From the NCBI GenBank assembly GCA_023253175.1, contig JALRHH010000002.1:192199-256198 (forward strand): a DNA stretch of 64,000 nucleotides. The letters are read 5' to 3'. The notes under the pieces are model-generated. The model was not told where the DNA came from. It ran no database searches and worked only from the letters and a program-made list of their open reading frames with translations. The DNA is from Candidatus Saccharimonadia bacterium. Lineage in GTDB: Bacteria > Patescibacteriota > Saccharimonadia > Saccharimonadales > JALRHH01. Below are positions 34,546 to 52,953 of the stretch, one piece after another; within the stretch, counting starts at the first letter, position 1; every line of letters begins with the position of its first letter. Made by a program: the position numbers and the translations under genes.

Positions 34546-35604
34546 ATGATTACAGATATTCGGTTGCAGCACTTCAGGTCCTACCAGGACAGTTCCTTCG
34601 AGATCGATCCAGGAGTAAATATTATTGTCGGTCCAAATGCGAGTGGTAAGACTAATTTACTGGAATCGGTACTTGTGAGCTGCCTCGGTAGCTCGTACAG
34701 GGTTAAGGATGCTGATCTCATTGAATTTGAGCAGCCATGGGCACGTATCGATGTCGGGAGTCCTGACGGGCAACGCACTGTGAAGCTGATAGGAAGCCCT
34801 GCTGGCACGGTTAAGAAAGAATACGTAATTGCCGATCAAAAACTCGCTCGCTTGTCGCTACAAAAGCAAATACCCGTTGTGTTATTTGAGCCTAACCATT
34901 TACAGCTACTTTCAAGTTCCCCTGACCTACGCCGCGATTACTTGGATGGGATTTTGGAACAGTATGTGCCTGGGTATGCCACGGTTCGCAGGCAGTACAA
35001 ACGGGCGTTGTCCCAGAGGAACCGATTATTAAAGCTTGGCCAGGAACAAGCCGGTTCGCAGTTGTTCGCATGGAATATACGACTCAGTCAGCTCGGCGGT
35101 GAACTTGCCCGTAATCGTATGGAATTGGTGGCTCGTATTTCAAATGACATAGAGCCGCTCTATCAGGATTTATCGAGTAGTGATTCAAGAGTGTCGGTTT
35201 CGTATGTGAGCGGCTGCCAGACGGATCAATACGGCTCTGACATGCTACATAAATTAGAGCAAAGCACTGCCAAAGATTTTGAGCGTGGCTTTACGGCATA
35301 TGGTCCTCACCGCGACGATATGCAGATCACATTAAAGAATAAGATGCTACAAGAAGCTGCATCGCGAGGCGAGACCCGCACGATGCTACTCGCACTTAAA
35401 ATTATTGAGATGCGCATCATTGAAGAAACCCGCGGGAAAAAGCCAATACTACTACTTGATGATGTGTTTAGCGAGCTCGACGGTGCACGCCGTAAATCAC
35501 TCACTGAAGTACTGAAAGACCACCAAACATTTATAACGACCACTGACGCCGATGTGGTTGTCGGCTATTTCCTAGATAAAAGCCACGTTATTTTAACAGG
35601 CTAA
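34546..35604 (+). CDS. recF: DNA replication and repair protein RecF
   Basis: 352 aa. It has Walker A GPNASGKTNLLE, the signature region ASRGETRT, and LLLDDVFSELD. Confidence 0.9.
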   Translation: MITDIRLQHFRSYQDSSFEIDPGVNIIVGPNASGKTNLLESVLVSCLGSSYRVKDADLIEFEQPWARIDVGSPDGQRTVKLIGSPAGTVKKEYVIADQKLARLSLQKQIPVVLFEPNHLQLLSSSPDLRRDYLDGILEQYVPGYATVRRQYKRALSQRNRLLKLGQEQAGSQLFAWNIRLSQLGGELARNRMELVARISNDIEPLYQDLSSSDSRVSVSYVSGCQTDQYGSDMLHKLEQSTAKDFERGFTAYGPHRDDMQITLKNKMLQEAASRGETRTMLLALKIIEMRIIEETRGKKPILLLDDVFSELDGARRKSLTEVLKDHQTFITTTDADVVVGYFLDKSHVILTG

Positions 35605-36272
35605 TAAATACCTGGCTCGGTAACCTCATACTGAATATTATAGTCATCTGGTCTAAAACCGATTGATGCTATATAGTCTTTGACTTGTGTTTTGTACTGC
35701 TCTATGGCGCCTTCTCTATCAATTCTGATATCCGCGGCGGTAAGGATCAGCTCGGCGTGTATGGTAAGGCTGTCATTTTCGTATAAAGCCTCTAGTTTAT
35801 AATTAAGGCCATCATATGGAAGGTGTGTAAGAATTGGGTCCGCCTTTGAGCCGTTTGAACTATCTTGAGCTTTAAGTATTGCTTCCTTTTGACTCTTCGG
35901 TAGTTTCTCAAACGGAATTTGCTTTGCTGTAAATCGAACAGTCTTGTTAACTAATTCTTCTCCCTTTTTCGAATGAATCTTAGAAATTTCAATCGTGTAT
36001 TCTTGCCGAGCATCCATTGGTCCAAGTCCGATGCGCAGCGTCTTTTCATTTACTACATCATAGCCTGTTATGGGCGCTTCGACGACGTTTACTTCGATAT
36101 TGTCTTCATCAAGTGCTTTGTTGAAGTTAATATCAATAAAAGGAGATATATTAGATACTTGTCTGGTCCCTGGGTTTGTGCCCGTAATGTGGAATACGAA
36201 GAACTGATAGTACAAAAGTCCAATAAAAGGAATTATAAGAACACCTATAACGATTATTAAAGCTCGTTTCAT
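35601..36272 (-). CDS. Membrane-anchored hypothetical protein with Ig-like (SbsA_Ig-like) domain; last gene of the T4SS-like operon
   Basis: 223 aa with N-terminal TM ALIIVIGVLIIPFIGLLYYQFFVF. Its start overlaps the upstream stop (TAATG at 36270-36274). Its stop overlaps the recF stop convergently. Confidence 0.5.
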   Translation of the reverse strand: MKRALIIVIGVLIIPFIGLLYYQFFVFHITGTNPGTRQVSNISPFIDINFNKALDEDNIEVNVVEAPITGYDVVNEKTLRIGLGPMDARQEYTIEISKIHSKKGEELVNKTVRFTAKQIPFEKLPKSQKEAILKAQDSSNGSKADPILTHLPYDGLNYKLEALYENDSLTIHAELILTAADIRIDREGAIEQYKTQVKDYIASIGFRPDDYNIQYEVTEPGIY

Positions 36273-37624
36273 TATTCAGTTCCTTTCGGGGATACGTAAC
36301 CAACTATATCGCTCGTAGCAAAGCCAGTGATAGTGTACTCAGTGACCTTACTTGATGTAAAGCCACCACCACCCTGATTACCACCTAGAACGGTCATTTT
36401 GTTTCCGTTAACGGCAACAACAAGCATGACGTGTGAAATGTAGTTTTTAGGGTCAGTATTCTTTTGTATCACGATGTCACCGGGCTGTGGTGTGTAATCG
36501 CCAGATTTATTAAAGGTAAATGTCTCACCCTTTTCGCCAATCGACCGTACTTCGTCAACACTGGCTACATTGCCCTGGTTACCTTTCTTTAGCGGATATC
36601 CGGCCTGGTTGTATATCCAGCTTACGAAGTCTGCGCACCAGTTTTCATTCCTGCCCTGACTATACTTGTGAAAATCTGTGCCTGGCTTAAGGGAACCGTT
36701 CCCCCAAAGCTCCAGTTCTTGCTTTGCGAGTGCTACAACTTTTTGCCTAACTGGTCCACCGATGCCGTTACATGCACCGCCAAGATCTGCGCCAGTAAGG
36801 GCTGCGTATTGTACGAAACCACCATATCCTTCATTTGCGGGGTATGATATCCCACCCCCATCTGTTTTGATTTGACCCCATCCGCTCGGGTTTTTGCCTG
36901 GATCGCGTTTTGCATCGGCTTTATTCATGACATATGGCGAGCCCTCGTAGCCCTCGTTTGCCTTGTAGCCGAGTGACTGAGCCTGTTTTTCGTACACACT
37001 CGCCCGCCCGTTATAACTAAACAACGTATCTTTTATGACATTCGGCTGAGAACTAGAGGTGATGGTCTTGTTTCCCTCGTAGTTTGCCTTTGCTTTACCG
37101 CTGATAAATTCGGCAACGAACATTGTCTGCCGCTCAAACTCTTTTTCGCTGACTGGTCCAGTTGGATATGGTCCGCCACGCTTGTCATAGAACTGGTAAA
37201 TGCCTTGACCATTGGATGGATTATTCCTGCCAAGTCCTGTCTCACGTATATGAATTACGGCAATTATCTGCCATGGAATATCGTGTTTTTGTGCTGCTTT
37301 CTCGTATACTGGCTGATTCTTTGCGATTTCGCTTAGCTGAGTTTTTGTCAGGATTTCGCGGCCAGCATAGTCTTTGTTTTGGCTTGTAGTGCCGACGATA
37401 TTAACACTACACTGGCTTGAGTTGTTCTTGTCGAGTGTGTCACATGGTCCGTAATAACCAGCATCCAAATTTATCATTCTCTCGTCTAGATTGTCGGTGT
37501 CTTCGCAGTCGATTGTCTCTGCGGCGTATGTTTTCTGTAGTGGCGAAATTGCAAAGAGTAGACTTAGGATTAAGGTAAGAACGATAGTATTTGATAGTAG
37601 CCGACGTGCACGTCTTAATTGCAT
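36272..37624 (-). CDS. Secreted bifunctional cell-wall hydrolase: SLT/lysozyme-like domain + C-terminal CHAP amidase/peptidase (VirB1/PrgK/CwlT analogue)
   Basis: 450 aa with a signal-like N-terminus. The N-terminal-half motifs IHIRETG ... GQGIYQF ... FSYNGRA parallel SLT motifs ES / GLMQ / AYNAG. The C-terminal half has NENWCADFVSWIYNQAGYP (Cys nucleophile) and ISHVMLVV (His), as in CHAP domains. Confidence 0.75.
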   Translation of the reverse strand: MQLRRARRLLSNTIVLTLILSLLFAISPLQKTYAAETIDCEDTDNLDERMINLDAGYYGPCDTLDKNNSSQCSVNIVGTTSQNKDYAGREILTKTQLSEIAKNQPVYEKAAQKHDIPWQIIAVIHIRETGLGRNNPSNGQGIYQFYDKRGGPYPTGPVSEKEFERQTMFVAEFISGKAKANYEGNKTITSSSQPNVIKDTLFSYNGRASVYEKQAQSLGYKANEGYEGSPYVMNKADAKRDPGKNPSGWGQIKTDGGGISYPANEGYGGFVQYAALTGADLGGACNGIGGPVRQKVVALAKQELELWGNGSLKPGTDFHKYSQGRNENWCADFVSWIYNQAGYPLKKGNQGNVASVDEVRSIGEKGETFTFNKSGDYTPQPGDIVIQKNTDPKNYISHVMLVVAVNGNKMTVLGGNQGGGGFTSSKVTEYTITGFATSDIVGYVSPKGTE

Positions 37625-40600
37625 GGCGATCTCGATTTCTTGCTGAGTTCAAGTAAGTTAATGCTCTTATTATCGCCCATTGCTCTGAAAAGATCTTGTG
37701 GACAAACATGCCTGCTATTGAAGGTCAAATCAATATGAAGGTGTGGTCCAGTGACTTTACAGCCAACTTGGCCAAGATCGAGTATTCTCTGGCCAGCATT
37801 TACTTTGTCGCCCTTTTTAAACCGTGGGTTTGTGCCATGACCGTAGGCAATGAGAACGCTACCACCTGCGATATTCGATCGTATAATCATTCCCTCTCCC
37901 GCGCCGCAAAGATTTGTTCTTTCAACCGTACCATCAAGCATCGAATACACGGGTGCCTTTAATGGTGGAGAGCTAATATCGACAGCGCCGCCACGGAGAT
38001 ATGGAGATGTAAAAGTCCCGCTTCTCATGCCATGTGCGTCGAGGAAATCACTCTTGTTGCTGTCCCAATACTTTTTATCTACTGGCCAAGCAAATCCGCT
38101 TGAACTTATCTCTGATCCTCCACTGGCACCGTCACCGCCTGCGGCTGCATCGCCTCCACCAGGGACAGTAATAGTTGTGTAGACTGGAGTCTTGGGGTGG
38201 TCTGACCCACTGACTGACTTACCGCCGTAAATAGCCTTGAATTTATCAATAACAACTTCTGGTGTGACATAGAGATAGTCCACACCACCCATGCCATTCT
38301 TTTGGCGACAATCTTTTTCTGGTGCCTCGGTTATCTTCATGAGTTTTTTAGCTGTCACCTTGCAGAAAAAGAGATTCGATTGTTTACCTTCATAGGTTAT
38401 ATTTCCTTTTAGTCGAACACCAGTACCCTCATTAAAGTCACCAGTAAATATAATTGGGACTCCCGGATTCTCTTGTCTGAGTTGTTCAATTTTTGCTACG
38501 TATAGGTCTGCAGACTGCATTCTCCGAAGACTACTCTGATCCATCGTGCCCGCACCACCATCGTCATTGTTTCCAAAGCCATTTGCAGCGCCGTGGGTGT
38601 TCATGAAGATAACTTGCTGTCCTGCTTTTGTCTTCAGGAATACGATTGGCGTTTGGGCGTGTGCATGCTCGATCTTTCCCCCACCTTCTGGACCACAGTC
38701 TGTGTCGAGGTTATTGTATCTTGGGTAGTCAAGAAAACCACTCTCTGCTCTTATGAAGTCAAACTTATTTCTATTCCAGAAAACCGCCTGTGGCACGGCA
38801 CATGGGTTGTCTGCTTTCGTTGGCCAAGAGTCGTAATCCGGTAAGTTCTGCTTAAAGTACCGGAAGTTACTGTCACCACCACGGAGCTCCTGGAACCCGA
38901 CAATATCAAATCCTACATTGCCTTTTGCACCTTTTGCTGTCTTGATGAGATTCACAGCTTTTGACCACTGTGTTGGTCCCCAACCGTTCTTACTTGGGAT
39001 ATTGTAAGTCGCTACCGTAAAGGTGCCACCAACGCCGCTGGAAGTAACGCCGCCACCTGATGATGCATCTTCGATGGCGTTTTCGCCTGCGAGTTCTGGC
39101 GCGTACTTGCCCGCCGTAGCACCCTGAGCCATGGAGTCGAATATGACGCAGTTGTATACGGTTTCAATTGTATCTCCTGCGTCAGGATTGTCCGCGTAAA
39201 GTTTTCCATAGAAGTCCGAGCTACTGGTCATGAGTTCCCAAGTTAACTCAGAAGAATCAATGAGACCGAGTTCGTCGGCATTAGTCATTTTGGGTAAGGA
39301 GTCCTTCTCTATGCTATTCAAGGGGTTGCTATCTGTACATTCGGCTGGTATATCATACATTTTTATGCCACCGAAATTAGCCGCCTCTCTACCAGTTGTT
39401 GTAGCTGCCTTTACCTTTCGGTTTGTCGCAATGCTAAAGGGTGTCTTCCAGACTGAGGAGAATGTGCGCATAAACATGTTAGAACGTGATTGTGTCGCGT
39501 TGGCTGTTATTGCCGAGGCAAGAACAGAATCGGTATTATCAAGACTTAAGTATCTATCAAAAGTTGACATATTCTGTTCTTTGTCTTGCATGTACTGCGC
39601 GATACGAACCTGATTTTCTCGCATTGATGTCTCGGTCGCGAGTGCGCCGCCAGCTAATCGTGATGAGGCTTCGGCTGCTCCTGCCCCACCTTGTATGACC
39701 TGATTCAAGATAACGCCGCCCGGAGAGCTTTCGTCGATTGCGGGAACTGCTCCTGCAAATCGAGCAACCTTCCCAACTGCCCAACCAACAATATCTTCAA
39801 TGTTGTCACTCAGCCCCAGACCCTTTAGTGCTCCATTCACGATTGGTCCGGTAACAGCACCAAGAACAGAATTAAATTTATCCAGCAGCCACCCAGCTCC
39901 TGTGTTGTCAAGGGCTGAGCCAAGTGGCCCCAATACGTAGCCCACTGAGTTCTGCCAAGCACTCTCAAAGGTTTTCGCATTCGTACTTGCTCCGACTTTT
40001 TGTGAGTCACAAAGATAGTGATATTCTTTCTCTGCCTCCGGCTTGTTCTCTTTTAGTTTGAGCATCTCCTGATGCTTGTCGCTACAGTAATCTTCTTTAT
40101 CTTTTGCTGGTGTAAAGCTTTCTGCACTAACAGCTCCTGAATTACTGGAGTTAACGATGACTTTATTCCAGCCCTCACTGGTGCCAGCGTAACTGAATAT
40201 TTGCATGAATTCATTATATTCTTCGGCGCTGAGCTCACCAGTATGATACTGGCTTGCAGGAATAGCAGCGAAGCTCGTGAATGCTGCTATGGCTTGCGCA
40301 TTTCGCATAGAGTAAACACCCTTGGACGCGGCACCGTTCTTTACTTGTTTATCGATATTTGTGAGTGTGTTTATAGTGTCTAGCGCACCAGCAGCACTCG
40401 CAAATTTAGTAACAACGTTATTGAGGATTTTAGACGTAAATCCTTTGCTTTTGCTGTCCCCCTCATCACTATCGCTATCCCCTGATATGTCGTCAGCGGT
40501 TCCTTCTAGGTCGCTATGGTTTGACGGATCATTTGGGTCTGTCGATGAGGAGCACTCGGAGCTTGGTAGAATGGCAAAGAGACATTGAATAAACTTACCA

Positions 40601-41685
40601 CTCTTTGTGCTTTCAGGCATTGATTTCTTTATTGCTTTTGATAACGCGGATACTTTTGCATCGTGCCATTTATCCCGGGTTTTTTCGAAGAAGCGCCAAT
40701 CGCGTATTCCGGTCATATTCTGGATAGCCTTGCGCGTATAATACCGCTTTGCGAATTGCCATGGTTTTGTGTTTTCATTCACAATCTTTTTAATGGCTTT
40801 GCGGCCCTCTTTGTCATTATTCATTACCTGGACATCTACAAAGTCACCGAGTCTGCCATTAAATTTATTAATGTCGAGATTATTATTATCCACCGCATCA
40901 CCTATAGCAGCTTGTTCTGCTGGTGTTAATTCAAACTTTATTTGCTCGTCATTAATAGATACGATGGCGGGTCTGAACTTTATTTGGTTCCCGTCGCGGT
41001 ACGCAGCGCTGGCAAATTTAATGCCATGCTTTTCGAATACTTCTTGTTCAAACTTACTCGCGCGAAGTGTTCTGTACCAGTCTGTTGTGGGGCTATTTGT
41101 ATCGACTCTGTTTGATCTGAAGATCATATTATCTCTGTCTTCAGGTGCAAGACCCGAGTCATCAACCTCCATAAGTCTCAGTGATATATATGCATTGACC
41201 CACTTACTAGAGCGACCTTCCATGTCAACCTGGAATCTTACAAACGTCTTTGCCTCGATATTTTTGAGGAACATGTCGATGTTTAGGGAGCTAAACATGC
41301 CAAAGAGCGCAATTATACTGCCGATCATTCCTCCCCCGGCAATTGCTAAAATGGTTTTTCGCTTCCTTGACGCGTTAGAAAATAAATTTCTTATGTTGCC
41401 TCTTTTTTTGTCCGCGCCGCTGTAAAAACCATCTAGATCAGATTTCTCTTGCTTGTCTGCTGCAGTGGCACCGTTTCCCTGTATTCCTGAAGATTCGACC
41501 TTTTCGATACTTGCACCATCTTCAGGTCTGTAAAAACCTGCATTTTCAGCAATATCATCGGCAGCACCACTATATGCAGCGTCTTCCATCCTGTCCTGTT
41601 CTTCGGGGCTTATGCCAAGCTCCTGAAGAAAATCTGGCTCCATCGAATGTTTTGCAGTTTCGTCTTCGTGTTTTGTAGGTGACAC
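37615..41685 (-). CDS. Giant single-pass membrane protein: acidic N-terminal tail, TM, approx. 750-aa unknown ectodomain, EEP (DNase I-like endo/exonuclease/phosphatase) domain, C-terminal M23/LytM peptidase domain
   Basis: 1356 aa. GTG start at 41685 with AGAGGA upstream. TM at aa 110-135 (TILAIAGGGMIGSIIALFGMF). EEP motifs appear in order at aa approx. 887-1172 (nt 38170-39027): TYNI, GFQE, MNTH, GDFN, SDH. M23 lies at aa approx. 1197-1325 (nt 37711-38097): GDKVNAGQRILDLGQVG..TGPHLHIDL. Confidence 0.75.
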   Translation of the reverse strand: MSPTKHEDETAKHSMEPDFLQELGISPEEQDRMEDAAYSGAADDIAENAGFYRPEDGASIEKVESSGIQGNGATAADKQEKSDLDGFYSGADKKRGNIRNLFSNASRKRKTILAIAGGGMIGSIIALFGMFSSLNIDMFLKNIEAKTFVRFQVDMEGRSSKWVNAYISLRLMEVDDSGLAPEDRDNMIFRSNRVDTNSPTTDWYRTLRASKFEQEVFEKHGIKFASAAYRDGNQIKFRPAIVSINDEQIKFELTPAEQAAIGDAVDNNNLDINKFNGRLGDFVDVQVMNNDKEGRKAIKKIVNENTKPWQFAKRYYTRKAIQNMTGIRDWRFFEKTRDKWHDAKVSALSKAIKKSMPESTKSGKFIQCLFAILPSSECSSSTDPNDPSNHSDLEGTADDISGDSDSDEGDSKSKGFTSKILNNVVTKFASAAGALDTINTLTNIDKQVKNGAASKGVYSMRNAQAIAAFTSFAAIPASQYHTGELSAEEYNEFMQIFSYAGTSEGWNKVIVNSSNSGAVSAESFTPAKDKEDYCSDKHQEMLKLKENKPEAEKEYHYLCDSQKVGASTNAKTFESAWQNSVGYVLGPLGSALDNTGAGWLLDKFNSVLGAVTGPIVNGALKGLGLSDNIEDIVGWAVGKVARFAGAVPAIDESSPGGVILNQVIQGGAGAAEASSRLAGGALATETSMRENQVRIAQYMQDKEQNMSTFDRYLSLDNTDSVLASAITANATQSRSNMFMRTFSSVWKTPFSIATNRKVKAATTTGREAANFGGIKMYDIPAECTDSNPLNSIEKDSLPKMTNADELGLIDSSELTWELMTSSSDFYGKLYADNPDAGDTIETVYNCVIFDSMAQGATAGKYAPELAGENAIEDASSGGGVTSSGVGGTFTVATYNIPSKNGWGPTQWSKAVNLIKTAKGAKGNVGFDIVGFQELRGGDSNFRYFKQNLPDYDSWPTKADNPCAVPQAVFWNRNKFDFIRAESGFLDYPRYNNLDTDCGPEGGGKIEHAHAQTPIVFLKTKAGQQVIFMNTHGAANGFGNNDDGGAGTMDQSSLRRMQSADLYVAKIEQLRQENPGVPIIFTGDFNEGTGVRLKGNITYEGKQSNLFFCKVTAKKLMKITEAPEKDCRQKNGMGGVDYLYVTPEVVIDKFKAIYGGKSVSGSDHPKTPVYTTITVPGGGDAAAGGDGASGGSEISSSGFAWPVDKKYWDSNKSDFLDAHGMRSGTFTSPYLRGGAVDISSPPLKAPVYSMLDGTVERTNLCGAGEGMIIRSNIAGGSVLIAYGHGTNPRFKKGDKVNAGQRILDLGQVGCKVTGPHLHIDLTFNSRHVCPQDLFRAMGDNKSINLLELSKKSRSPCN

Positions 41686-41758: not shown

Positions 41759-43666
41759 TTAAATTCCTGGCATGAGCCTGTTATTAAGGTCAATTGTCCC
41801 GCCATTACCAGTAAAGCTTCCTTGTTGTTCGATCGCTCTCACTTGGTCTGGATTAGTGGTGATAAGATTTGTCTCTGTTTCACTGGCTGCGATTTGGATA
41901 TGTACATGGTTTTGTCCGGCAAAGAAGAGTCCCTGTCCAACGGGGAACTGGCTCAATCGCTTCTTTTCCTCACTCGTTAGCTTAAATACATCGGACAACA
42001 CATCAACGGCCGCTGGTGATTGCTTAAGGAGTATCTGCATGGAGGCATTGTTTACGATCGCCCTTCCCATACGTGATCCCATAAAGTCTTCCACATCTTG
42101 GGTGATGGTTGTGATGCCAAGATTATACTTACGGGCACGCTTTGCGAGACTAAACAAGAAGTTGGCCGAGTCCTCGTATTTCATGAGCTGCCACGCCTCA
42201 TCAACAATCATGATGCGGCGCTTTTGATCGCTCTTGGTCTTGTTCCAAATAAAGTTCAGTACGATGTACATCGCGACAGGACGAAGTTCGTCCTCGAGGT
42301 CACGAATATTGAATACCACCATAGGGTTGTTAATATCGATGTTACTCTGTTGGCTGAAAATACCTGCGAATGTACCAGTGGTATATTTGCGAAGTCGCTG
42401 CGCTAGCTGAGGACCCGTGCCGCCCATGTGCAGGAGTGTGTCGTACAGGTCGTTAATGGTTGGTGGTGGGCTGCCGTGTGTCAGTGGGTCATTGGTAATG
42501 CCGGCCTTTGCATATGTTTCAATCAGGGCTGCATCAAGGTCTGCTTCCTCGCTTGGGGCGAGTGCAGGCATGCTGGGGCCACCATTGTTGGCCATAGCCG
42601 CCTGGGCACCACCCATCATAAGACGTAGTAGTCCATGCAGTGTTAACAGGTTGCTCGTAAGTGCATTATCGGCCTCTTCGGTATCAACAACCTTTGGTAG
42701 GTCAAACGGATTGATACGGGTTGGAGACGTTAGACTCAGGCGAACGTATGCACCACCAACTGCCTCACACATGCGTTGATATTCGTTCTCTGGGTCAATA
42801 ATAAAGATCTCGGTACCCATCATCATGCTTCGGAGTGCTTCGAGCTTTACAGTAAATGATTTACCAGCACCAGATTTTGCGAATACGACTGAGTTACTGT
42901 TTTCTAGACTAAACCGGTCAAAAATAACCAGTCCAGAGTTATGCATATTGATGCCGTATAAGATGCCGTCGTCTTGTGTCAGGTCAGCGCTCGTGAATGG
43001 GAAGCTCGTACTAAGCGCACCGGTGTTGAAGTTACGCCTAATTTGTAATTGGTCAGTAAGCTGCGGAACTGTGCTATTAAGCGCCTGCTCTTGTTGGCTC
43101 GTTGCTGGCTTAGAGTATACAAGCTGCTGTCCAAGCATTGACTCGACCTTGTGTGCGACATATTCGAGTTCGTCCATACTGCCGCCGTAAATGGTGAAAT
43201 AGAGCCCAAAACGGAAGAAGCGCTCTTCTCCAACCTGAAGCTTATCTCGCATCTCTTCGGCGTCCAGGATGGCGGCTTGCTTTGCGGGATCACGAACACG
43301 GCCTTTTTCAGCATCAATTTGTAATCCAGCCTCAAGCTGCGTCACTTTCTTTCGAAGATTTTCAAGAACTACTTGACTCTCCACTGGATAGATGAACATC
43401 GACATATCCATGACCTCATCAAGGTTAACCATGCTACTGAGCCAGCCGGTGTAGATCTGACGAGGGTATCCGTAAACATAGTAGGTCCGCGCAAAGCGAG
43501 TCCCTAGTTGGAAATGAGTTGAAAAGAATTCAAGTGAACTTGGTGCGATAAAATCACGGAGCGCAGTAATGCCCTTTTGAAAAGCTGCCTGTACTTCTTG
43601 CTGTTCGCGTAGTTGCTGCTGCTGCGCTAGGGCAACCGGGTCAAGTTGCTGCTTCTTTTTAGCCAT
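41759..43666 (-). CDS. virB4: VirB4-family type IV secretion ATPase (C-terminal two-thirds of Gram-positive VirB4/TrsE-type proteins)
   Basis: 635 aa. It has Walker A FAKSGAGKSF, IIDPENEYQRM, Walker B RRIMIVDEAWQLM, and RKYNLGITTITQDVEDF. Confidence 0.9.
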   Translation of the reverse strand: MAKKKQQLDPVALAQQQQLREQQEVQAAFQKGITALRDFIAPSSLEFFSTHFQLGTRFARTYYVYGYPRQIYTGWLSSMVNLDEVMDMSMFIYPVESQVVLENLRKKVTQLEAGLQIDAEKGRVRDPAKQAAILDAEEMRDKLQVGEERFFRFGLYFTIYGGSMDELEYVAHKVESMLGQQLVYSKPATSQQEQALNSTVPQLTDQLQIRRNFNTGALSTSFPFTSADLTQDDGILYGINMHNSGLVIFDRFSLENSNSVVFAKSGAGKSFTVKLEALRSMMMGTEIFIIDPENEYQRMCEAVGGAYVRLSLTSPTRINPFDLPKVVDTEEADNALTSNLLTLHGLLRLMMGGAQAAMANNGGPSMPALAPSEEADLDAALIETYAKAGITNDPLTHGSPPPTINDLYDTLLHMGGTGPQLAQRLRKYTTGTFAGIFSQQSNIDINNPMVVFNIRDLEDELRPVAMYIVLNFIWNKTKSDQKRRIMIVDEAWQLMKYEDSANFLFSLAKRARKYNLGITTITQDVEDFMGSRMGRAIVNNASMQILLKQSPAAVDVLSDVFKLTSEEKKRLSQFPVGQGLFFAGQNHVHIQIAASETETNLITTNPDQVRAIEQQGSFTGNGGTIDLNNRLMPGI

Positions 43667-45720: not shown

Positions 45721-47088
45721 TTAGCGTTCGCGAAGGTCGCGCGCACGCTTTAGGATGGAGGCTACCTCTGCGTTAGAGAGATCTGCACCAAAGTGCTGGC
45801 GTACAACTTTTCGTCGAATCTCTGCCTTGTCTTCGGCTTGCTGCTCGTCAGAAGTGGAGTCCGCGTAGGTTCTGATGTATAAGCTGAGTTTTTTGCCAAT
45901 CTCTTTATCGACTTGTCGTAACTGTTCTTCAGTGTATTCTTGTTTTGCTTCACCTTGCACTACTTGTTGCTGTGCGGCTTCACGACGCGCCGCTGCAAGC
46001 CTCGCCGAAAGGTCGCTTGGCTTTGGTGCTTGGGGCTGCACTTCTTCCTTTGATTCGCTCGGCAGGTCTGTTGTTTGCTCGGGCTGTGCGGGGAGCACCT
46101 TGTCGAGTCGTTGATTCGCTAGGCGCATAAACAGTTCATTGCTTAGTTGTTCTCGCTCTTCTGGCGGAAAGCTCACGAGACATTTCGTGATAATAATCTT
46201 AAGCGCATAGTGTGTATCCACTGGATTCTCTAAATTGATACCAGATTCTTGAACTTCGGCATCAATCTTTTCGAATAGTGCAGGCTTATCAAGGTCAGCG
46301 TATTGTTCGCCATTGTGCATGAATCTGGTTACAAAGTCTTCTATAAACGCTTCATCATTAAAGCGACCGCGGTCGTGACTCGTAAGCACGCCAACTGCTA
46401 CTGCCATCTTTGCTTTTTGGTCCAGCTTGTCAAAAGACTCACGACTACCTTCCCGCTGTGCGTCTGCAATGTGGCTATTAATCCGCTCCCGTAGCTCCTG
46501 TATGCTTGGAATCTGTTCTTGTAGAGTGCGTTCATTATCTGTACTGCCTATTGACTCATTCGTCGCATCGTTGTTCTGCTCGACTAAGTCTAGAGTTGAT
46601 TCAGGGTTTACTCTCTCGGTATTACCCTGAGCAGAACTTCTCTGGGCAAGCTCTTCCATCGCTTTGTCACGGAGTAGATCGTCCCTGGTGTAGAGCTTCC
46701 CTTTGTATTCCTTCATTTTTTCCAGATTCTTTTCGTATCTGCGCTTGTCCTTAGGGTTCTTGATATCCTCTATGACAACAGGACCATTAACGGGACTCAT
46801 ATAGTGTACATCTGCAAGATCCATATTAATCGATGCAAGGTGAGAGATCTTGCGTCGCCAACGGTCATTCTTCTTGGCTTGTTTGAGGCTTATATTTACC
46901 CCTTCCAGCCGGAGCCTGTCTATTATTAAGTTTAGTTCCCCATCCACCGGCAGTTCCTGGGTATTACTTGAGATTTCCCTGCTTAGCCCTGCCAAGACTA
47001 CACTTTGTTCTTCTATGCTTGCGCCTAGCTCGGAAGCTTCTTTAATTTCTGTTTGATTTAATCCTGACTCAGGACTAGGTTGGTTCAT
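45721..47088 (-). CDS. Hypothetical acidic, helical protein (455 aa) of the T4SS-like operon
   Basis: ORF with no TM and no recognisable motif. It is co-oriented and tightly spaced within the operon. Confidence 0.5.
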   Translation of the reverse strand: MNQPSPESGLNQTEIKEASELGASIEEQSVVLAGLSREISSNTQELPVDGELNLIIDRLRLEGVNISLKQAKKNDRWRRKISHLASINMDLADVHYMSPVNGPVVIEDIKNPKDKRRYEKNLEKMKEYKGKLYTRDDLLRDKAMEELAQRSSAQGNTERVNPESTLDLVEQNNDATNESIGSTDNERTLQEQIPSIQELRERINSHIADAQREGSRESFDKLDQKAKMAVAVGVLTSHDRGRFNDEAFIEDFVTRFMHNGEQYADLDKPALFEKIDAEVQESGINLENPVDTHYALKIIITKCLVSFPPEEREQLSNELFMRLANQRLDKVLPAQPEQTTDLPSESKEEVQPQAPKPSDLSARLAAARREAAQQQVVQGEAKQEYTEEQLRQVDKEIGKKLSLYIRTYADSTSDEQQAEDKAEIRRKVVRQHFGADLSNAEVASILKRARDLRER

Positions 47089-47094
47089 ATGCTA

Positions 47095-47123: not shown

Positions 47124-47140
47124 CTATACAGTTAAGATGC

Positions 47141-48550
47141 TTACCCTAAGGGAGAAGGATTAGGTTCACTGCCTGGCTCGGGCGGTGCCTGGCCTGCTCT
47201 TTGAGCGATCTCGTTCGCATACTCTCGGCGCATCTCCTTGAAGTCACTGTTACCTCTCAGGCCATCAATTGCTTGTTGATAGGTGATGGTGCCAGAGAAC
47301 TGGTAGGAGCCATCAGATTGTAAGAGCGCAGGCTGTAGACGAGCTTTCATCTCAGGGCTGAGAGTCGCGATATCGATAGTCTTACTCAATACTTCATCAG
47401 CAACAATCTTTGCTTTAGCTGGGCTTGATCCTTGCATGCCATCGTAAACCGCTGCAAGAGAGGCGAGACTTTGGGTGAACTGTTTGTCCGAGCCTGACGC
47501 TTGGGCATCCTGCACACTACTGACCATTTCAGGCGCCAATTCCTTGATGGAGTCGGGCTTCATGCTTGAGTGAACAAGTGATGCACCACCCTGACCTTCG
47601 TATACGTCCTTGTGTATTGTCTTGGTTGCTTCTTCGATGTCAGCTAGCGTAACCTCTTCCCCATTGCGAAGTTTTTCTCTAAATTTATTAACCACGCCCA
47701 GGGTAGTTCCGAAGCCAGCCCCTCCTGTATCCATGCGACCTGCTTTTACGGTTTCTGAGCGTCCATTGGCAACAAGATATGATGCCATCGCATCGTCGTC
47801 CTTGGATGCTCGCGCAACATCGAGCCAGAACTCTCCGGCTGCGGTCTTCTTGGTTGCATCCTTTGCTGTTTTATATGCGGTGCCCCCGGCGCCCGCTTGT
47901 CGGACTGTCATGGCCTGGAATGCAGGGGTGCTCATACTTCGCCTGACGTTCTCTACGCGGTTAACAGCGTCGTCAAGCGCCTGACCTTCGTACGCTCGAC
48001 TACCGTCATCATTCCTCATCTCACTAAGATAGCTGCGAAGCTCGGCGGCATTACGGGTCTTGCTTGCAGCTTTATTGAGTCCATCATCATGCATCCATGA
48101 CTGGTATGCTTGATTTTCTTTCATGTTGCGTTCAATCTCTAGCGCGTGGGCATTTTGCATGCCGACTCTGGTTGCTGCACGCCAGTTGTTCGGTTTAAAG
48201 GTATTGCCACTATCGAGTATTGCCCCCGGCGCAGTTAGACCTCCTGAAATACCCCTATTGAGGCGTCCACGAAAGTTCGTCTTAGTTCCGCCAGCAAATC
48301 GATTGCCTCCCCTTGCTCTTTCGTTGTACTTTTGGCGTTGTCCTTCTCGGAACTTGCGTTGCCTATCAAAGAAGCCCCTGCTCCTGTCGTTCAGCATTCC
48401 GGTGAGTGCGCTAAAAGCTCCCATGCCTGTCTTCAACGCAGCAGGTATAAGGAAATACGGCACAATATATGCCGTTAGTTGCACAAACAGATTAAGGAAT
48501 CCGATATCGAGGGCATCTGCAAACTGAATTGAATAGAGTATATGTTCCAT
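47141..48550 (-). CDS. Hypothetical protein (469 aa) with N-terminal hydrophobic segment and Pro-rich C-terminus; T4SS-like operon
   Basis: ORF starting 6 nt after the VirB6-like stop. No recognisable domain. Confidence 0.5.
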   Translation of the reverse strand: MEHILYSIQFADALDIGFLNLFVQLTAYIVPYFLIPAALKTGMGAFSALTGMLNDRSRGFFDRQRKFREGQRQKYNERARGGNRFAGGTKTNFRGRLNRGISGGLTAPGAILDSGNTFKPNNWRAATRVGMQNAHALEIERNMKENQAYQSWMHDDGLNKAASKTRNAAELRSYLSEMRNDDGSRAYEGQALDDAVNRVENVRRSMSTPAFQAMTVRQAGAGGTAYKTAKDATKKTAAGEFWLDVARASKDDDAMASYLVANGRSETVKAGRMDTGGAGFGTTLGVVNKFREKLRNGEEVTLADIEEATKTIHKDVYEGQGGASLVHSSMKPDSIKELAPEMVSSVQDAQASGSDKQFTQSLASLAAVYDGMQGSSPAKAKIVADEVLSKTIDIATLSPEMKARLQPALLQSDGSYQFSGTITYQQAIDGLRGNSDFKEMRREYANEIAQRAGQAPPEPGSEPNPSPLG

Positions 48551-48555
48551 AATAT

Positions 48556-50262
48556 TTATCCGAATAATCCCGCTACAAATTTACCGCTTGCTAGAAGTAT
48601 AGCAATGATCGGATACGCCATAAGCATGGCGATAAACGTGCCCTTCCAGAGTCCCCAGAGTTTATCGTTACCTGGGAATATCCATGCAAGAATTGCTAGT
48701 GGCGCTATGACCATGAGCATGATGAGGAGTACTTGCCTGAGGACAAGAATAACAAATCCTATAAATAGTCCGACAGCGGTAACAAGCGCAAAGCTACCTA
48801 CAATTCCGATCGTAAGAGCACCTGACAGAACCGCAGCTGTTGTAACAACCAGGCCGCCGAAGCCTGCGAGTGTCGTTGATGCTTGATGTGCCGCAAGAAT
48901 TTCTCCTATGCTCGAGGTATCTGTTGGGGATGCGTTGATGATGATATTTCCAAGTCCCTGTCCAGCAATGTTGCTGAGCGCGACACCGAACTGTGTAATG
49001 GGGAGTGATAATACTATAAATATAGTTGCAAAGAACATACGCGGAAGCGCTTTTTTGACAGTATATGGATCAAATGGGCCAAAGTTAATCGCCGTTCCGA
49101 TAACCATAAACATCATTATCGGCACAAGTATAAGCAGCGCGATGTTGCGCATTGTTTCCCACGCCTGTTCTATCTCTGCCCCCTTGTACCTGTCTCCGTC
49201 AACAAACAATAGGTTGTTTACCCATGTATCGAGCGTATCAACGATGCCGTCAAGGATGCCTCCGATGACTTGGCAAAGGAACCATGCAAGTGGACCACCT
49301 TCGCTTTCACAGGATGCTTCTGTGTTCGAGCGGCTACGGTCATCGCCGGTTGTTCCATCGTTTATGCCAGCTGCTTTATTATCTTTTATTTCCTTTACGT
49401 ATGCATCTATGTACTTATCTAAATCACTCTCTAAGTCTTGGCAGCGTTTCTTGTTGTTGCTAGCAAAATAGCCGTTTCCACCAGTGTCAATATTGTCATT
49501 GCCGTCTTTGGTCTCGACGTACCATTGCTCGATCTTGTCATCTTTGCTGTTGTATAGGGGACTTTTATATTTCTTGTCGCCCTTTAGGCTTTGATCGGTA
49601 TACAGTTCTTTAAAATCTGCCCTACAGCCAAGTCGGAATGTTTCGAGGTTTATGTAGTATCGCATGCCAGGGCTAAGCGAATCCTGAATACCCTTGCCCT
49701 CTAAGTACTTCTCTCTAAAAATTTTGTTCCACTCATCTTGTATCTTGTTTGACTCGGTGCCACCACTCCACCTGAAATGACCAGAGCCGCCCTTACAGGA
49801 GTCGCCTGCTGGCCCAGCGGTATCACGTGTGAAGCCCATGGTACATAATACGTCCTTCCAATCAAGATCAAGTGCGGAGAGTGCCTTGGTTACGAGGTCG
49901 GACTCGGAGCAATCAACGATACCATCGTCCCCATTGCCTTCAACTTCGTTGTTTAGAATGGTGCCAACATTTTTTCCACCCTCACCCTGGCCATTAAACC
50001 ACTCACCACTCTCGGCATGGTCTTCATCGATCAAGTCATTATTAATACCATCCTTTAATCCGTTTTCTTTGAAGCAAAGACCTATCGCTCGTCCATAGAG
50101 CCAAGCCTTGGACCGTTGCTCAACAGTGTCTTTTGAGTATGGTGCGGCACTTGCTAATTCTGGCTTGACGCCAGTAAAGACAACAGTACTCACAAAAACA
50201 GCGGCAAATAAAAGCGCTACGTACCTATAGAGTTTTTGTGTCTTTTTCATGAGTTTCCACAC
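48556..50262 (-). CDS. VirB6/TrbL-like polytopic membrane protein with approx. 320-aa Cys-containing N-terminal ectodomain
   Basis: 568 aa with a signal-like N-terminus. The C-terminal approx. 220 aa have 5-6 TM, including LMVIAPLAILAWIFPGNDKLWGLWKGTFIAMLMAYPIIA, which resembles the conserved TrbL/VirB6 region. The track start is GTG at 50262; an alternative ATG is at 50250. Confidence 0.6.
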   Translation of the reverse strand: MWKLMKKTQKLYRYVALLFAAVFVSTVVFTGVKPELASAAPYSKDTVEQRSKAWLYGRAIGLCFKENGLKDGINNDLIDEDHAESGEWFNGQGEGGKNVGTILNNEVEGNGDDGIVDCSESDLVTKALSALDLDWKDVLCTMGFTRDTAGPAGDSCKGGSGHFRWSGGTESNKIQDEWNKIFREKYLEGKGIQDSLSPGMRYYINLETFRLGCRADFKELYTDQSLKGDKKYKSPLYNSKDDKIEQWYVETKDGNDNIDTGGNGYFASNNKKRCQDLESDLDKYIDAYVKEIKDNKAAGINDGTTGDDRSRSNTEASCESEGGPLAWFLCQVIGGILDGIVDTLDTWVNNLLFVDGDRYKGAEIEQAWETMRNIALLILVPIMMFMVIGTAINFGPFDPYTVKKALPRMFFATIFIVLSLPITQFGVALSNIAGQGLGNIIINASPTDTSSIGEILAAHQASTTLAGFGGLVVTTAAVLSGALTIGIVGSFALVTAVGLFIGFVILVLRQVLLIMLMVIAPLAILAWIFPGNDKLWGLWKGTFIAMLMAYPIIAILLASGKFVAGLFG

Positions 50263-50319
50263 ATTAGAATATTCGAATCATACCATTTATTGTACTAATG
50301 CAACAGTGCAAATACCTGG

Positions 50320-50348
50320 TTGCCAAAAGTTATATTTCACAATATAGT
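50320..50348 (+). promoter_or_regulatory. Promoter of the pilin-like array (TTGCCA - 17 nt - TATAGT), -10 ends 9 nt before the ATG at 50358
   Basis: Read directly. It is divergent from the VirB6-like operon start. Confidence 0.45.
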
Positions 50349-50357
50349 AAGCATCAA

Positions 50358-51005
50358 ATGAAGCAAATACGAAAAACAAAGCTCTTGCTTGTAATTATAG
50401 GAATCATTGTGTCGTTCGTCGGACCCGTGGTCCTTACTAATTCATCAACGGTCTTTGCGGCCGGGTGTATTACTAATCCGAGCTCTGATCCGTTAGTAAC
50501 CGATCAACAAAACTGTATAAAGAAGTACGTTAAAGATTGTAAAGACAAAAAGTTCGAAGCAACTTTCTGTGATAACCTGACAGTCAAGCAGATAAACAAT
50601 TGTGCGAATGACAAAGGATTTACACTAAAGAAAGCTTGTGTAGAAAAGTTGATAGCGGATGCCTCAAAAGACGAAAGCGCTGAGGGCACCTCGTCTGGCA
50701 GTACTAGTGATATCGGGAATGACTACGACACCGACGATTGTGCAGTCTCTCCCGAGGGTCTTGAAAGCAGTAACTGTGAGGTAATTAAGATGATTGTCCT
50801 CATTACTAATATTATGTCTGGTCTAGCGGCTACGGTGATCGTGGCGATGATTGTATTGGGAGGTATTCAATATTCAACGGCAGGTGCAGAAGCGGCTAAA
50901 GTCCAGGCGGCTAAACAAAAGATTACCAATGCCCTTCTTGCTCTTATGTTATTAATATTTGGATTTAGTATTATTCAATGGCTTGTTCCGGGAGGATTGA
51001 TTTAA
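50358..51005 (+). CDS. T4SS pilin-like (VirB2/TrbC-like) protein 1, with long Cys-rich N-terminal ectodomain
   Basis: I prefer the ATG at 50358 (MKQIRKTKLLLVIIGIIVSFVG...). The C-terminal module is SGLAATVIVAMIVLGGIQYSTAGAEAAKVQAAKQKITNALLALMLLIFGF (TM - G.QY..S.G - AK - TM). Confidence 0.6.
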   Translation: MKQIRKTKLLLVIIGIIVSFVGPVVLTNSSTVFAAGCITNPSSDPLVTDQQNCIKKYVKDCKDKKFEATFCDNLTVKQINNCANDKGFTLKKACVEKLIADASKDESAEGTSSGSTSDIGNDYDTDDCAVSPEGLESSNCEVIKMIVLITNIMSGLAATVIVAMIVLGGIQYSTAGAEAAKVQAAKQKITNALLALMLLIFGFSIIQWLVPGGLI

Positions 51006-51006
51006 C

Positions 51007-51611: not shown

Positions 51612-52003
51612 TCGGAAAAATGAAATTATTTATTGTTGGACTACTGGCTACTTTTAGTCTCTCGCTTGCGTTTGCCCCAAGTGCATCGGCAGCCTTTAGT
51701 TTGTTTGGCGATGCTTGTAGGGGTGTTTCGGACTCTGCTGTTTGCAAAGATAGTAAGAACTCAAGCAATCCAATCTATGGACCGAATGGTATCGTAGGAA
51801 CAGTCGTTAATATTCTTTCCATTATTGTTGGTGTGGCGGCGGTAATCGTCATCATTATTGCTGGCATACAGTACATGCTGTCTACGGGTGATCCTAGCAA
51901 GGTTAATAATGCCAAGAACGCTATTTTGTATGCCGTTGTGGGACTGATTATTGCAGTGCTGTCTCAAGTGATTGTCAAGTTTATAATTTCGAGGATAGGT
52001 TAG
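51608..52003 (+). CDS. T4SS pilin-like protein 4
   Basis: 131 aa with signal peptide ...APSASA and a Cys pair (GDACRGVSDSAVCKD). The module is AAVIVIIIAGIQYMLSTGDPSKVNNAKNAILYAVVGLIIAVLS. There is an ATGA overlap with protein 3. Confidence 0.65.
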   Translation: MIGKMKLFIVGLLATFSLSLAFAPSASAAFSLFGDACRGVSDSAVCKDSKNSSNPIYGPNGIVGTVVNILSIIVGVAAVIVIIIAGIQYMLSTGDPSKVNNAKNAILYAVVGLIIAVLSQVIVKFIISRIG

Positions 52004-52006
52004 AGT

Positions 52007-52450
52007 TTGAAGCGGCTGATCCTTGCATTGTCTATCTTGTTCGTAGGATTTTTCTTAACTTCACCACTGTCTGTATCCGCACAAGCAGATGCTTCAAGCC
52101 AAGTATCGTGCGAAACTTTAAGGAACGTAAACCCCAACGACATCGGGTGTGCGGGTTCTAATGGTCAAGTCAGCAAGGTAATTAGGTTGGCCCTCCAGAT
52201 ACTAAGTCTTGCAGCTGGCATTATTGCGGTCATCATGGTCATTGTATCCGGGCTTAAGTACGTGACCTCCCAAGGTGATTCTAATGCAATATCCAGCGCC
52301 AAGAATTCATTGATCTACGCAATCGTAGGTATTGTAGTGGTTGTTTTTGCACAGATTCTTGTGCAATTCGTGCTACAGACTTCCGACAGAGACTACTCCC
52401 CTAATCCAGTTGAAACAGAAGATTCGTCACGCCGCACTGATTCACGGTAG
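52007..52450 (+). CDS. T4SS pilin-like protein 5
   Basis: 147 aa, TTG start, signal peptide ...LSVSAQA, and a Cys pair (CETLRNVNPNDIGC). The module is IIAVIMVIVSGLKYVTSQGDSNAISSAKNSLIYAIVGIVVVVFA. Confidence 0.6.
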   Translation: MKRLILALSILFVGFFLTSPLSVSAQADASSQVSCETLRNVNPNDIGCAGSNGQVSKVIRLALQILSLAAGIIAVIMVIVSGLKYVTSQGDSNAISSAKNSLIYAIVGIVVVVFAQILVQFVLQTSDRDYSPNPVETEDSSRRTDSR

Positions 52451-52545
52451 TTTGAATCGACCATTAACGTGTCGCGTATCCCTTGTAGACGGCGTTTTCT
52501 TGTGGTATAAGTAATCCTAGACAAATAAGAAAGGTAATCAGAAAT

Positions 52546-52953
52546 ATGATTCAAACACTAAAAAATAATATTGCTAAGATTCTCATTGCGGCTGCCCTGT
52601 TGGCTCCTGCGTTAGTGCCTGCAACCGTGTCAGCAGCAGATGCGGACATTCAGAACAGCCTTAAGCAAGGCTCATGTTTAGACGTAAGTGCTGAGTGTGA
52701 AACACAAGGCTCAGAGGAAGATATTAATAACCTTATCGCAACGGTGATTAACATTTTCTCTGTGGTTGTCGGTGTTGTGGCAGTTATCATGATCATTATC
52801 GGTGGTCTTAAGTACATTACCTCTTCTGGTGACAGCAATAACGTAACAAGCGCAAAGAATACGATTCTTTACGCAATTATCGGTTTGGTAGTTGTGGCGC
52901 TTGCACAATTCATTGTGAAGTTCGTGCTCCAGCGCGCTACTTCTTCAGAATAA
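52546..52953 (+). CDS. T4SS pilin-like protein 6
   Basis: 135 aa with signal peptide ...ATVSAADA and a Cys pair (CLDVSAEC). The module is VVAVIMIIIGGLKYITSSGDSNNVTSAKNTILYAIIGLVVVALA. Confidence 0.65.
   Translation: MIQTLKNNIAKILIAAALLAPALVPATVSAADADIQNSLKQGSCLDVSAECETQGSEEDINNLIATVINIFSVVVGVVAVIMIIIGGLKYITSSGDSNNVTSAKNTILYAIIGLVVVALAQFIVKFVLQRATSSE

Follow-up and report, generated by a model that had tools for sequence, protein, structure and literature searches.

A probable orthologue of the conserved Saccharibacterial type IV secretion system in an uncultured Saccharimonadales bacterium

The 64-kb window analysed here, taken from contig JALRHH010000002.1 of a Candidatus Saccharimonadia bacterium, contains between recF and hsp20 a locus that resembles a type IV secretion system (T4SS). 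It is composed of a minus-strand operon of nine open reading frames (ORFs) read in one direction from 50262 to 35601 (568, 469, 455, 329, 310, 635, 1356, 450 and 223 aa, in this order) and of a divergent plus-strand array of six pilin-like ORFs (50298-52953). There is little doubt, in our view, that this locus, which belongs to an uncultured Saccharimonadales species, is orthologous to the conserved T4SS of Saccharibacteria. It is also highly likely that the machine is of the monoderm type and descends from Gram-positive conjugation systems, having lost their DNA-processing parts and gained an array of VirB2 pilins.

This layout had been described in an earlier note on the same DNA, whose coordinates for the nine minus-strand and six plus-strand ORFs all agree with the ORF list. 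The junctions between genes are also as it reported them: the plus strand reads CATTA at 43664-43668 and 36270-36274 (TAATG on the coding strand), the 1356- and 450-aa genes overlap by 10 nt at 37615-37624 (TTAATTGCAT, i.e. ATGCAATTAA), and the CTAA at 35601-35604 is common to the convergent, overlapping stops of recF and of the 223-aa gene.

A chromosomal T4SS/pilus cluster beside the replication origin is carried by almost all Saccharibacteria (PMC12102498, PMC7427843). The region and its array of 4-6 genes were described across the group in 2018/2020, including Nanosynbacter lyticus TM7x (McLean et al., PMC7427843). In Southlakia epibionticum ML1, transposon sequencing (Tn-seq) found almost all genes of the locus essential, the machine being needed for growth on the host (Wang et al. 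2023, PMC10633639), and the same authors described a system that resembles Gram-positive conjugative T4SSs, with an unusual series of essential pilins and without recognisable coupling or relaxase proteins (PMC10633639). More recently, a 2025 survey of the phylum (Quinonero-Coronel et al., PMC12102498) reported a VirB4 clade that is sister to MPF_FATA, accompanied by TrsD, PrgI, VirB6 and arrays of 2-11 VirB2 genes, with relaxases nearly absent, VirD4 homologues mostly far from virB4, and a proximity to dnaA/dnaN for which a gene-dosage argument was given. Nothing in the gene composition, the lack of relaxase and coupling protein, the array of pilins, the site near the origin or the hypotheses of uptake or effector delivery is thus new. 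The description of the locus and the interpretation given in the earlier note were right, but both had already been published.

The correspondence with S. epibionticum extends to single genes. In that genome, recF (SEML1_0003) is followed on the minus strand by SEML1_0004-0013, which encode Ig-like proteins, a lysozyme/Cys-peptidase protein, a 1113-aa peptidase protein, VirB4, a 293-aa protein, PrgI, two long VirB6-like proteins and an NTF2-like protein, and on the plus strand by six pilin genes (SEML1_0014-0019); hsp20 (SEML1_0020) and a ComF-like gene (SEML1_0021) come next and a tRNA-Ser follows. Over SEML1_0001-0022, both genomes therefore share the arrangement recF, T4SS locus, hsp20-comF-tRNA-Ser next to dnaA with the same strand layout, and over SEML1_0004-0019 they share VirB4, the TrsD-like protein, PrgI, VirB6-like proteins and large hydrolase genes directly downstream of virB4, both loci being without relaxase or coupling protein. 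They differ in four respects. S. epibionticum has two long VirB6-like genes and a non-essential NTF2-like gene, whereas here one VirB6 is split in two; the gene between VirB6 and PrgI is here an unrelated near-ORFan; the large protein encoded downstream of virB4 ends in a DD-peptidase (VanY/Hedgehog-like) in S. epibionticum and in an endonuclease/exonuclease/phosphatase (EEP) domain plus an atypical M23 domain here; and the following hydrolase has two lysozyme-like domains and a Cys peptidase there, but an unclassified SLT-like domain and a CHAP domain here.

The locus is equally recognisable in other relatives. A VirB4 scan over one genome per species gave 591 relatives, of which the best 80 loci (L001-L080) were used for the comparisons. 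All of these 80 are metagenome-assembled genomes of Saccharibacteria/Saccharimonadales with a VirB4 84-94% identical to the one described here, which agrees with the earlier suggestion of an epibiotic-type bacterium from the Candidate Phyla Radiation (CPR). The exact locus proteins recur on 11 contigs that were assembled independently, one of which measures 644 kb, and a 950-kb NCBI contig carries further proteins of the locus. Wherever the contigs of the 80 loci reach, tblastn retrieved the order dnaA-dnaN-recF, three to four genes, VirB4, TrsD-like, PrgI, VirB6-like, pilins, hsp20 and comF. At least 66 related species genomes share this gene order, and in 66/66 loci recF and the operon are convergent. 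The TrsD-like protein is present in 79/80 loci, PrgI in 75/80, the VirB6 transmembrane (TM) region in 57/80 and the pilins in 48-51/80, the last count being limited by contig ends. Far from being absent from close relatives, the locus lies at the same site, from recF to hsp20, in every contig long enough, and this conserved site and order indicate that it belongs to the core genome. Median identities reach 86% for VirB4, 72% for DnaA, 70% for DnaN, 69.5% for the TrsD-like protein, 55% for RecF, 43% for PrgI and 39-51% for the pilins. VirB4 identity exceeds that of DnaA, DnaN and RecF in every paired locus, among loci picked by VirB4 similarity.

Motor, membrane proteins and pilin array

The motor of the system is a VirB4 ATPase of 635 aa (41759..43666, minus strand) of the monoderm, MPF_FATA-related CD1110 type. 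Its earlier identification is well supported by Pfam (P-loop_TraG, 110 bits, and AAA_10) and by the Walker A (AKSGAGKSF) and Walker B (IMIVDEAW) motifs read in the translation; it also scores 349.8 bits against NCBIfam NF045971 conju_CD1110 (cut-off 325). Its best solved relative is the Thermoanaerobacter VirB4 (PDB 4ag5, E=1.4e-49), followed by TrwK at 3e-6, and no VirD4-type structure was present among the matches of the PDB-profile search.

The gene for a TrsD-like protein of 310 aa (43666..44598, minus strand) is translationally coupled to virB4 through one of the TAATG junctions. It matches NCBIfam TrsD NF041427 (E=2.4e-5) and carries the precomputed assignment PF26593 TraC-like; its profile-versus-PDB search gave nothing significant. 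The 310-aa protein covers positions 2-118 of the CD1110 VirB4 profile (and 97-250 of the VirB4_plasma profile), and the 635-aa protein covers positions 176-734 of the CD1110 profile. As the two polypeptides match complementary parts of VirB4 profiles, they look like a VirB4 whose N-terminal domain is made separately, and the TrsD-like protein looks equivalent to a free-standing VirB4 N-terminal domain. This view of TrsD is already published (PMC12102498).

Upstream in the operon lies a PrgI family (VirB3-like) protein of 329 aa (44697..45686, minus strand) with two N-terminal TM helices (25-68) and a Q/P-rich tail. The PrgI/VirB3 call made from the sequence was confirmed by Pfam PF12666 (31.9 bits, cut-off 27), so that VirB4 and PrgI both pass their family cut-offs.

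The VirB6/TrbL-like component is encoded by two genes. The N-terminal half (48556..50262, minus strand) is 568 aa long when the longest ORF is read from GTG 50262, a start at ATG 50250 (564 aa) being likely; its ~340-aa extracellular domain is rich in Cys, and it also has a signal/anchor helix and, at 374-559, five TM helices. The C-terminal half of 469 aa (47141..48550, minus strand) adds one further TM helix and a hydrophilic domain of ~430 aa. The evidence on the earlier VirB6/TrbL call is divided: a precomputed PF19590 TrbL_3 assignment on an identical product and the 5+1 TM helices speak for it, while no hidden Markov model (HMM) match was obtained in the Pfam and NCBIfam scans. The 469-aa ORF, formerly left without a family, supplies the C-terminal half of an extended VirB6-like protein that is split here. 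The halves are separated by TAA, 5 nt and ATG (~48550-48558), and they form a single ORF of 700-1280 aa in 33/37 relatives with both parts detectable. The split is found here and in loci L001, L008 and L024 (three other species), and it recurs in independently assembled contigs from several samples. This recurrence indicates a real fission; a sequencing error was considered and ruled out by the independent assemblies and the three other species.

The slot between VirB6 and PrgI is occupied by a gene for a 455-aa protein (45721..47088, minus strand) that is acidic, highly charged (40% E/K/R/D/Q) and soluble, with no TM helix. The protein was described as having no recognisable family, and this holds: no match was found in Pfam, NCBIfam or PHROG, nor in the 80 related loci. 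It is close to an ORFan, as a database of 5.8e9 proteins returned only itself and one homologue with 42% identity, and only 5 representatives match among 1.84e9. In 25/57 species the slot is empty, and elsewhere it mostly holds unrelated genes.

The divergent array begins with a larger pilin-like protein (50358..51005, plus strand), of 215 aa from ATG 50358 or 235 aa from ATG 50298, which combines a signal/anchor, an additional Cys-rich domain of ~130 aa (9 Cys) and a C-terminal VirB2-like two-helix core. Five tandem VirB2-type pilins follow on the same strand (51007-51333, 51330-51611, 51608-52003, 52007-52450 and 52546-52953), each of which has a leader and a pair of hydrophobic helices and shares 21-28% identity with the first pilin. 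The description of six pilin-like genes is upheld. The five match PF18895 (T4SS_pilin) with 43-58 bits (cut-off 26.6); the first scores 22.7 bits, below the cut-off, but has the same two-hydrophobic-helix VirB2 core, which aligns with those of the other five. Three of the pilins also weakly match TrbC/VirB2, and the paralogues show up as DNA repeats (repeat D1). Between the operon and the array lies a divergent control region (50251..50357). The promoter scan placed there, at 50320-50348 on the plus strand, the best sigma-70-like site of the 19 kb scanned (TTGCCA-17-TATAGT). Since this promoter-like site falls inside the longest ORF of the first pilin, translation probably starts at ATG 50358 and not at 50298; gene calls on identical contigs also start this gene downstream of the site.

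The genes that would make the machine conjugative are missing. With Pfam run on all ORFs >=100 aa of the 64-kb window, no VirD4, relaxase, VirB11, VirB7/9/10 or recombinase/integrase was found in the locus or in the window, which extends to the whole window an absence first noticed for the locus alone. No att-like or direct repeats bounding the locus were found either, and the combination of coupling protein, relaxase and oriT with att sites or an integrase that would betray an ordinary integrative and conjugative element (ICE) does not occur within these 64 kb. The phrase 'without coupling protein' is valid for the locus and the window only. Together with the conserved site, the absence of relaxase, coupling protein and integrase within 64 kb agrees with the earlier view of a chromosomal, non-conjugative locus, and its gene content suggests that it is neither a conjugation system nor an ICE.

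Compared with the MPF_FATA systems (the C. difficile CTn CD1110 family, pGO1 Trs, pCF10 Prg and ICEBs1), the locus has homologues of the CD1110-type VirB4, TrsD and PrgI, the same monoderm layout without VirB7/9/10, and multi-domain wall hydrolases that accompany the apparatus. PrgK (LytM/SLT/CHAP) and CwlT are such wall hydrolases of Gram-positive conjugative T4SSs. It differs from the MPF_FATA systems in having no relaxase, coupling protein, oriT or integrase, and in being fixed in the chromosome and conserved across a class instead of forming a mobile element. It also has an array of VirB2-type pilins, which Gram-positive systems do not have (PMC12102498).

Wall hydrolases downstream of virB4

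Three genes lie between virB4 and recF. The first encodes a membrane-anchored protein of 1356 aa (37615..41685, minus strand) with a cytoplasmic N-terminus, one TM helix (112-130), a scaffold domain, an EEP domain and an M23 domain. The scaffold domain comprises ~640-720 aa (aa ~57-778), and an iterated HMM seeded with aa 1-860 found it homologous over the full 637-position profile in 66/66 positional equivalents. The earlier note had left approximately 750 aa of this protein without a family. That description stands as far as known families are concerned, the scaffold having no Pfam, PHROG or PDB-sequence (profile search) relative, yet the region is a scaffold kept in 66/66 species, and the EEP and M23 domains are to be added to the description.

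The EEP domain (aa ~875-1189) scores 20-23 bits in Pfam, just below the cut-off of 24.5, and its catalytic motifs YN, QE, NTH, GDFN and SDH are conserved across 8 aligned sequences. An AlphaFold model of the region, of moderate confidence (pLDDT 66), matches EEP structures in Foldseek with E=1e-13, among them Bacteroides EEP proteins, the mannosyl-6-phosphatase BT3783, TDP2 and nocturnin; the EEP fold is sure, while the substrate could be DNA, a wall phosphodiester or a lipid. The M23 peptidase domain (aa ~1190-1340) is above its Pfam cut-off with 41.8 bits and matches PDB 9gy1. Its HxH motif is kept (HLH invariant), while the query and 6/7 homologues have GxxxD in place of HxxxD and so lack this His. 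The pair of an EEP and a His-less M23 domain (window positions 37615-39110) found seven homologues only in the search of 5.8e9 proteins.

The second gene encodes a predicted exported cell-wall hydrolase of 450 aa (36272..37624, minus strand) with a Sec-type leader, an unclassified N-domain and a C-terminal CHAP amidase/peptidase domain (325-416). It had been called an SLT-like plus CHAP hydrolase. The CHAP part is confirmed by Pfam (45.1 bits), and PHROG matches to endolysins and tail lysins cover this same part. The SLT-like part, which no HMM or PDB-profile search matched, is suggested by three motifs and by positional equivalents: E128, GxxQ144 and Y204-N205-G206 are invariant in 7 homologues, and we infer that they represent the SLT motifs E-S/T, G-x-x-Q and Y-N-G.

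The operon ends with the gene for a membrane-anchored protein of 223 aa (35601..36272, minus strand), which has a TM helix and for which a beta-sandwich (~45-115) and a small alpha/beta domain (~158-218) are predicted. As had been reported, it has no recognisable family: the Pfam, NCBIfam and PHROG scans are empty. Homologues occur in 7/80 related loci, and in position and size the protein resembles SEML1_0005, which has an Ig-like and an OmpATb-N-like domain. Its structural model is of low confidence (pLDDT 56), with a secondary structure that is not NTF2/VirB8-like, and the profile-versus-PDB search gave nothing significant, a pilin match at E=0.03 being driven by the TM helix.

Across species, the two to three genes downstream of virB4 stay in place and retain an N-terminal scaffold, while their catalytic domains are swapped. 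Among 66 species, the large protein ends in VanY (17), M23 (6), EEP (6) or CHAP (2), with single cases of alginate lyase, tyrosine-phosphatase-like, Amidase_2, GDSL, GDPD, beta-lactamase-like, NlpC/P60 and Amidase_5 domains. In the same 66 species, the next gene, equivalent to the 450-aa one, carries Phage_lysozyme2 (37), CHAP (12), GDSL (12), M23 (9), C39_2 (8), Amidase_3 (7), SLT_2 (7), SLT (5), glucosaminidase (5) and others. GH3 and GH43 were also seen among the catalytic domains swapped in the genes between virB4 and recF. The closest relative illustrates the contrast, as its VirB4 is 94% identical but its large protein only 23%, and it has no detectable homologue of the 450- or 223-aa gene. 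The pattern is one of a nearly invariant cytoplasmic motor with exposed parts that turn over quickly.

We tentatively propose, from these comparisons, that the genes directly downstream of virB4 may constitute a polymorphic 'envelope-breaching' module. The 2025 survey notes extra wall-metabolism domains on VirB1 homologues as well as essential peptidase and lysozyme genes downstream of virB4, and its text makes no mention of 'polymorphic', 'hypervariable', 'head-on' or EEP (PMC12102498). If it is true that its enzymes act on host wall polymers and not on the wall of the epibiont itself, such a module would determine host range in Saccharibacteria. The polymorphic hydrolases and the EEP domain are of modest residual value as leads.

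Possible roles of the machine

Few machines have been shown to be essential for the epibiotic life of CPR bacteria, and the Saccharibacterial T4SS is one of them. By analogy with the behaviour of VirB3, VirB4 and VirB6 in other T4SSs, VirB4, with its N-domain as a separate TrsD-like polypeptide, would dock on the membrane via PrgI/VirB3 and the split, extended VirB6. It would then extract Sec-exported VirB2-like pilins from the membrane and polymerise them into a filament or conduit. In Agrobacterium, VirB-dependent pilus biogenesis needs VirB4 and not the VirD4 coupling protein. The parts kept in the locus match this requirement, and they may be the set that assembly of a VirB2 filament or channel calls for. 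A pilus-like conduit to the host cell might be built by the machine in this way, for which the two large membrane-anchored or exported hydrolases (EEP plus atypical M23; SLT-like plus CHAP) would open cell-wall layers, possibly those of the host. The reshuffling of catalytic domains between species beside an almost invariant motor suggests that these hydrolases could act at least partly on the host envelope and help to set host specificity. Effector export and import of host molecules are sub-options for the direction of the cargo. We consider that this mechanism of a pilus or conduit with wall breaching has roughly an even chance of being correct. The split VirB6, the scaffold with shuffled domains, the ORFans of the slot and a VirB4 more conserved than DnaA could aid experiments on host specificity.

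Several points weigh against it, or against the reading of the locus as such. No pilus has been seen, and even in the model species the role of the system has been called 'completely unknown' (PMC11665869). The VirB6-like protein had no match in the Pfam, NCBIfam and PDB-profile (TM region) searches. A VirB8-like component (PrgL/TraM, NTF2-like) had no HMM match in Pfam and NCBIfam, and the model of the 223-aa candidate is poor (pLDDT 56), its secondary structure not looking NTF2-like. The comparison of VirB4 with DnaA carries an ascertainment bias, loci having been chosen by VirB4 similarity. The hydrolases could also vary because constraint on them is relaxed, or because they are adapted to the cell's own wall and not to the host. 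Finally, a coupling protein may exist elsewhere in the genome, which would leave export of cytoplasmic substrates possible; VirD4 homologues far from virB4 are common in Patescibacteria and are found in S. epibionticum too, where the gene is non-essential (PMC12102498).

The alternatives concern mainly what the machine transports. The strongest is a contact-dependent effector translocator into the host bacterium, like the bactericidal T4SSs of Xanthomonas and Stenotrophomonas, with the variable hydrolases as cargo. It has been published as speculation (PMC10633639, PMC11665869, PMC7427843), and the conserved N-terminal scaffold with swapped C-terminal enzymatic domains does resemble polymorphic effectors. 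However, the locus has no coupling protein to recruit cytoplasmic substrates, no immunity-like genes were recognised beside the hydrolases, and the N-terminal TM anchor of the large protein and the Sec-type leader of the 450-aa protein fit apparatus hydrolases of the PrgK/CwlT type, so that we hold this possibility to be doubtful.

Import of host DNA through a pilus and channel, with degradation for nucleotides as in a ComB-like uptake system, appears unlikely. This idea and that of effectors are both found in a 2024 PNAS perspective (PMC11665869) and repeated in a 2025 review, and the inference of 'uptake or effector delivery' in the earlier note agrees with these published hypotheses. As in H. 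pylori ComB, no coupling protein or relaxase is present at the locus; a ComF-like gene is a conserved neighbour, and the 1356-aa protein contains an EEP domain, a fold with nucleases among its members. The DNA-uptake half of the inference is nevertheless weakened by S. epibionticum, where deletion of comEC abolishes competence and transformation while viability and growth are kept, whereas the T4SS is essential (2025 review). The essential function being independent of ComEC in this species, it speaks against a ComB-like role. The ComF-like SEML1_0021 is also non-essential, EEP occurs in the large proteins of only 6/66 species, the nearest EEP structures are phosphatases and phosphodiesterases of mixed substrate (mannosyl-6-phosphatase, TDP2), and VirB7/9/10 of the ComB type were not found with Pfam and NCBIfam. 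More generally, H. pylori ComB (DNA uptake), B. pertussis Ptl (toxin export) and Brucella VirB are like the present locus in being non-conjugative and in lacking a VirD4-type coupling protein at the locus, but they are diderm systems with VirB7-10 core complexes, and no homology to them beyond VirB2/3/4/6 was found at the locus.

A Ptl-like exporter, in which the six small Sec-dependent proteins would be subunits of a secreted toxin-like complex and not pilins (PMC7427843), is very improbable. The four to six small signal-peptide proteins beside T4SS genes, with no coupling protein, do recall ptx/ptl (PMC7427843). Against this, all six match the T4SS_pilin family (the first below the cut-off), three of them weakly match TrbC/VirB2 as well, they share a VirB2 core, and the similarity to pertussis toxin S1 is only 11% (PMC7427843). 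Finally, an ordinary ICE of the Gram-positive MPF_FATA type or its decayed remnant, lying by chance beside oriC, can practically be dismissed: the closest non-Patescibacterial relatives of VirB4, TrsD and PrgI are indeed Firmicute ICE and plasmid conjugation proteins and two tRNA-Ser genes lie 1.5 kb from the array, but the absence of relaxase, coupling protein, integrase and att-like repeats in the window and the fact that at least 66 species keep the locus at the same chromosomal site with the same gene order rule out an ICE or mobile island, VirB4 is conserved more strongly than DnaA, the orthologous locus is essential in S. epibionticum (PMC10633639), and the GC content is not distinct from that of the flanks.

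Origin, flanking genes and other features of the window

Both flanks consist of housekeeping genes, as had been stated, with assignments from Pfam and tRNA calls. On the left, dnaA (31773-33170, plus strand) lies ~2.4 kb from the end of the operon and is followed by dnaN (33434-34525, plus strand), which is just upstream of recF (34546..35604, plus strand); the latter forms the left boundary and converges on the operon. Left of ~31.2 kb, rnpA-yidC-jag are on the minus strand, opposite to dnaA-dnaN-recF. The right boundary is made of hsp20 (53095-53634, minus strand), a ComF-like phosphoribosyltransferase (53574-54434, plus strand) and two tRNA-Ser genes (54510-54599 and 54624-54716). The G+C of the T4SS locus resembles that of these flanks. 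The tRNA-Ser genes (anticodons TGA and GCT) stand in tandem, 25 nt apart, directly after the ComF-like gene, and their 3' ends are 88% identical over 33 nt.

The divergence of minus-strand rnpA-yidC-jag from plus-strand dnaA-dnaN-recF, together with a cluster of DnaA boxes, places the origin very probably at 31.2-33.4 kb. With one mismatch allowed, 5 of the 15 DnaA boxes of the window fall at 31603-31706 and 33173-33341; as 15.9 boxes are expected, they are not enriched window-wide and only this dnaA-side cluster is suggestive. Near 50 kb the GC skew has a minimum, but a weak one, and the placing of the origin makes no use of it. An 81-aa ORF between dnaA and dnaN (33163-33408), proposed by gene callers, spans near-consensus DnaA boxes at 33173-33181 and 33333-33341; with these two boxes inside it, the interval may be origin DNA and not a gene.

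The earlier remark that the 14.7-kb operon is transcribed head-on to replication was confirmed, the operon being read towards the expected origin with an orientation conserved in 66/66 loci. This orientation of a long essential operon beside oriC is not discussed in the 2025 survey (PMC12102498), and we regard it as a minor curiosity for an essential operon.

Other parts of the window were noted in passing. Two ORFs, at 9926-11932 (668 aa) and 61714-63393 (559 aa), have no Pfam family at E<=0.001. Positions 2000-18000 have a lower G+C (0.38-0.41, versus 0.45-0.49 elsewhere) and encode glycosyltransferases, sugar epimerases/dehydratases, methyltransferases and a Wzm/Wzt-type ABC exporter; an O-antigen-ligase-like gene stands close by (20893-22248). 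These genes form a surface-polysaccharide cluster, which may have been acquired horizontally. A GH10 xylanase-like gene (24767-25885) and a gene for a 917-aa protein (26103-28856) with a cutinase domain and weak PKD matches lie immediately left of the origin region; a secreted cutinase-type esterase is of note in a lineage whose known hosts are Actinobacteria.

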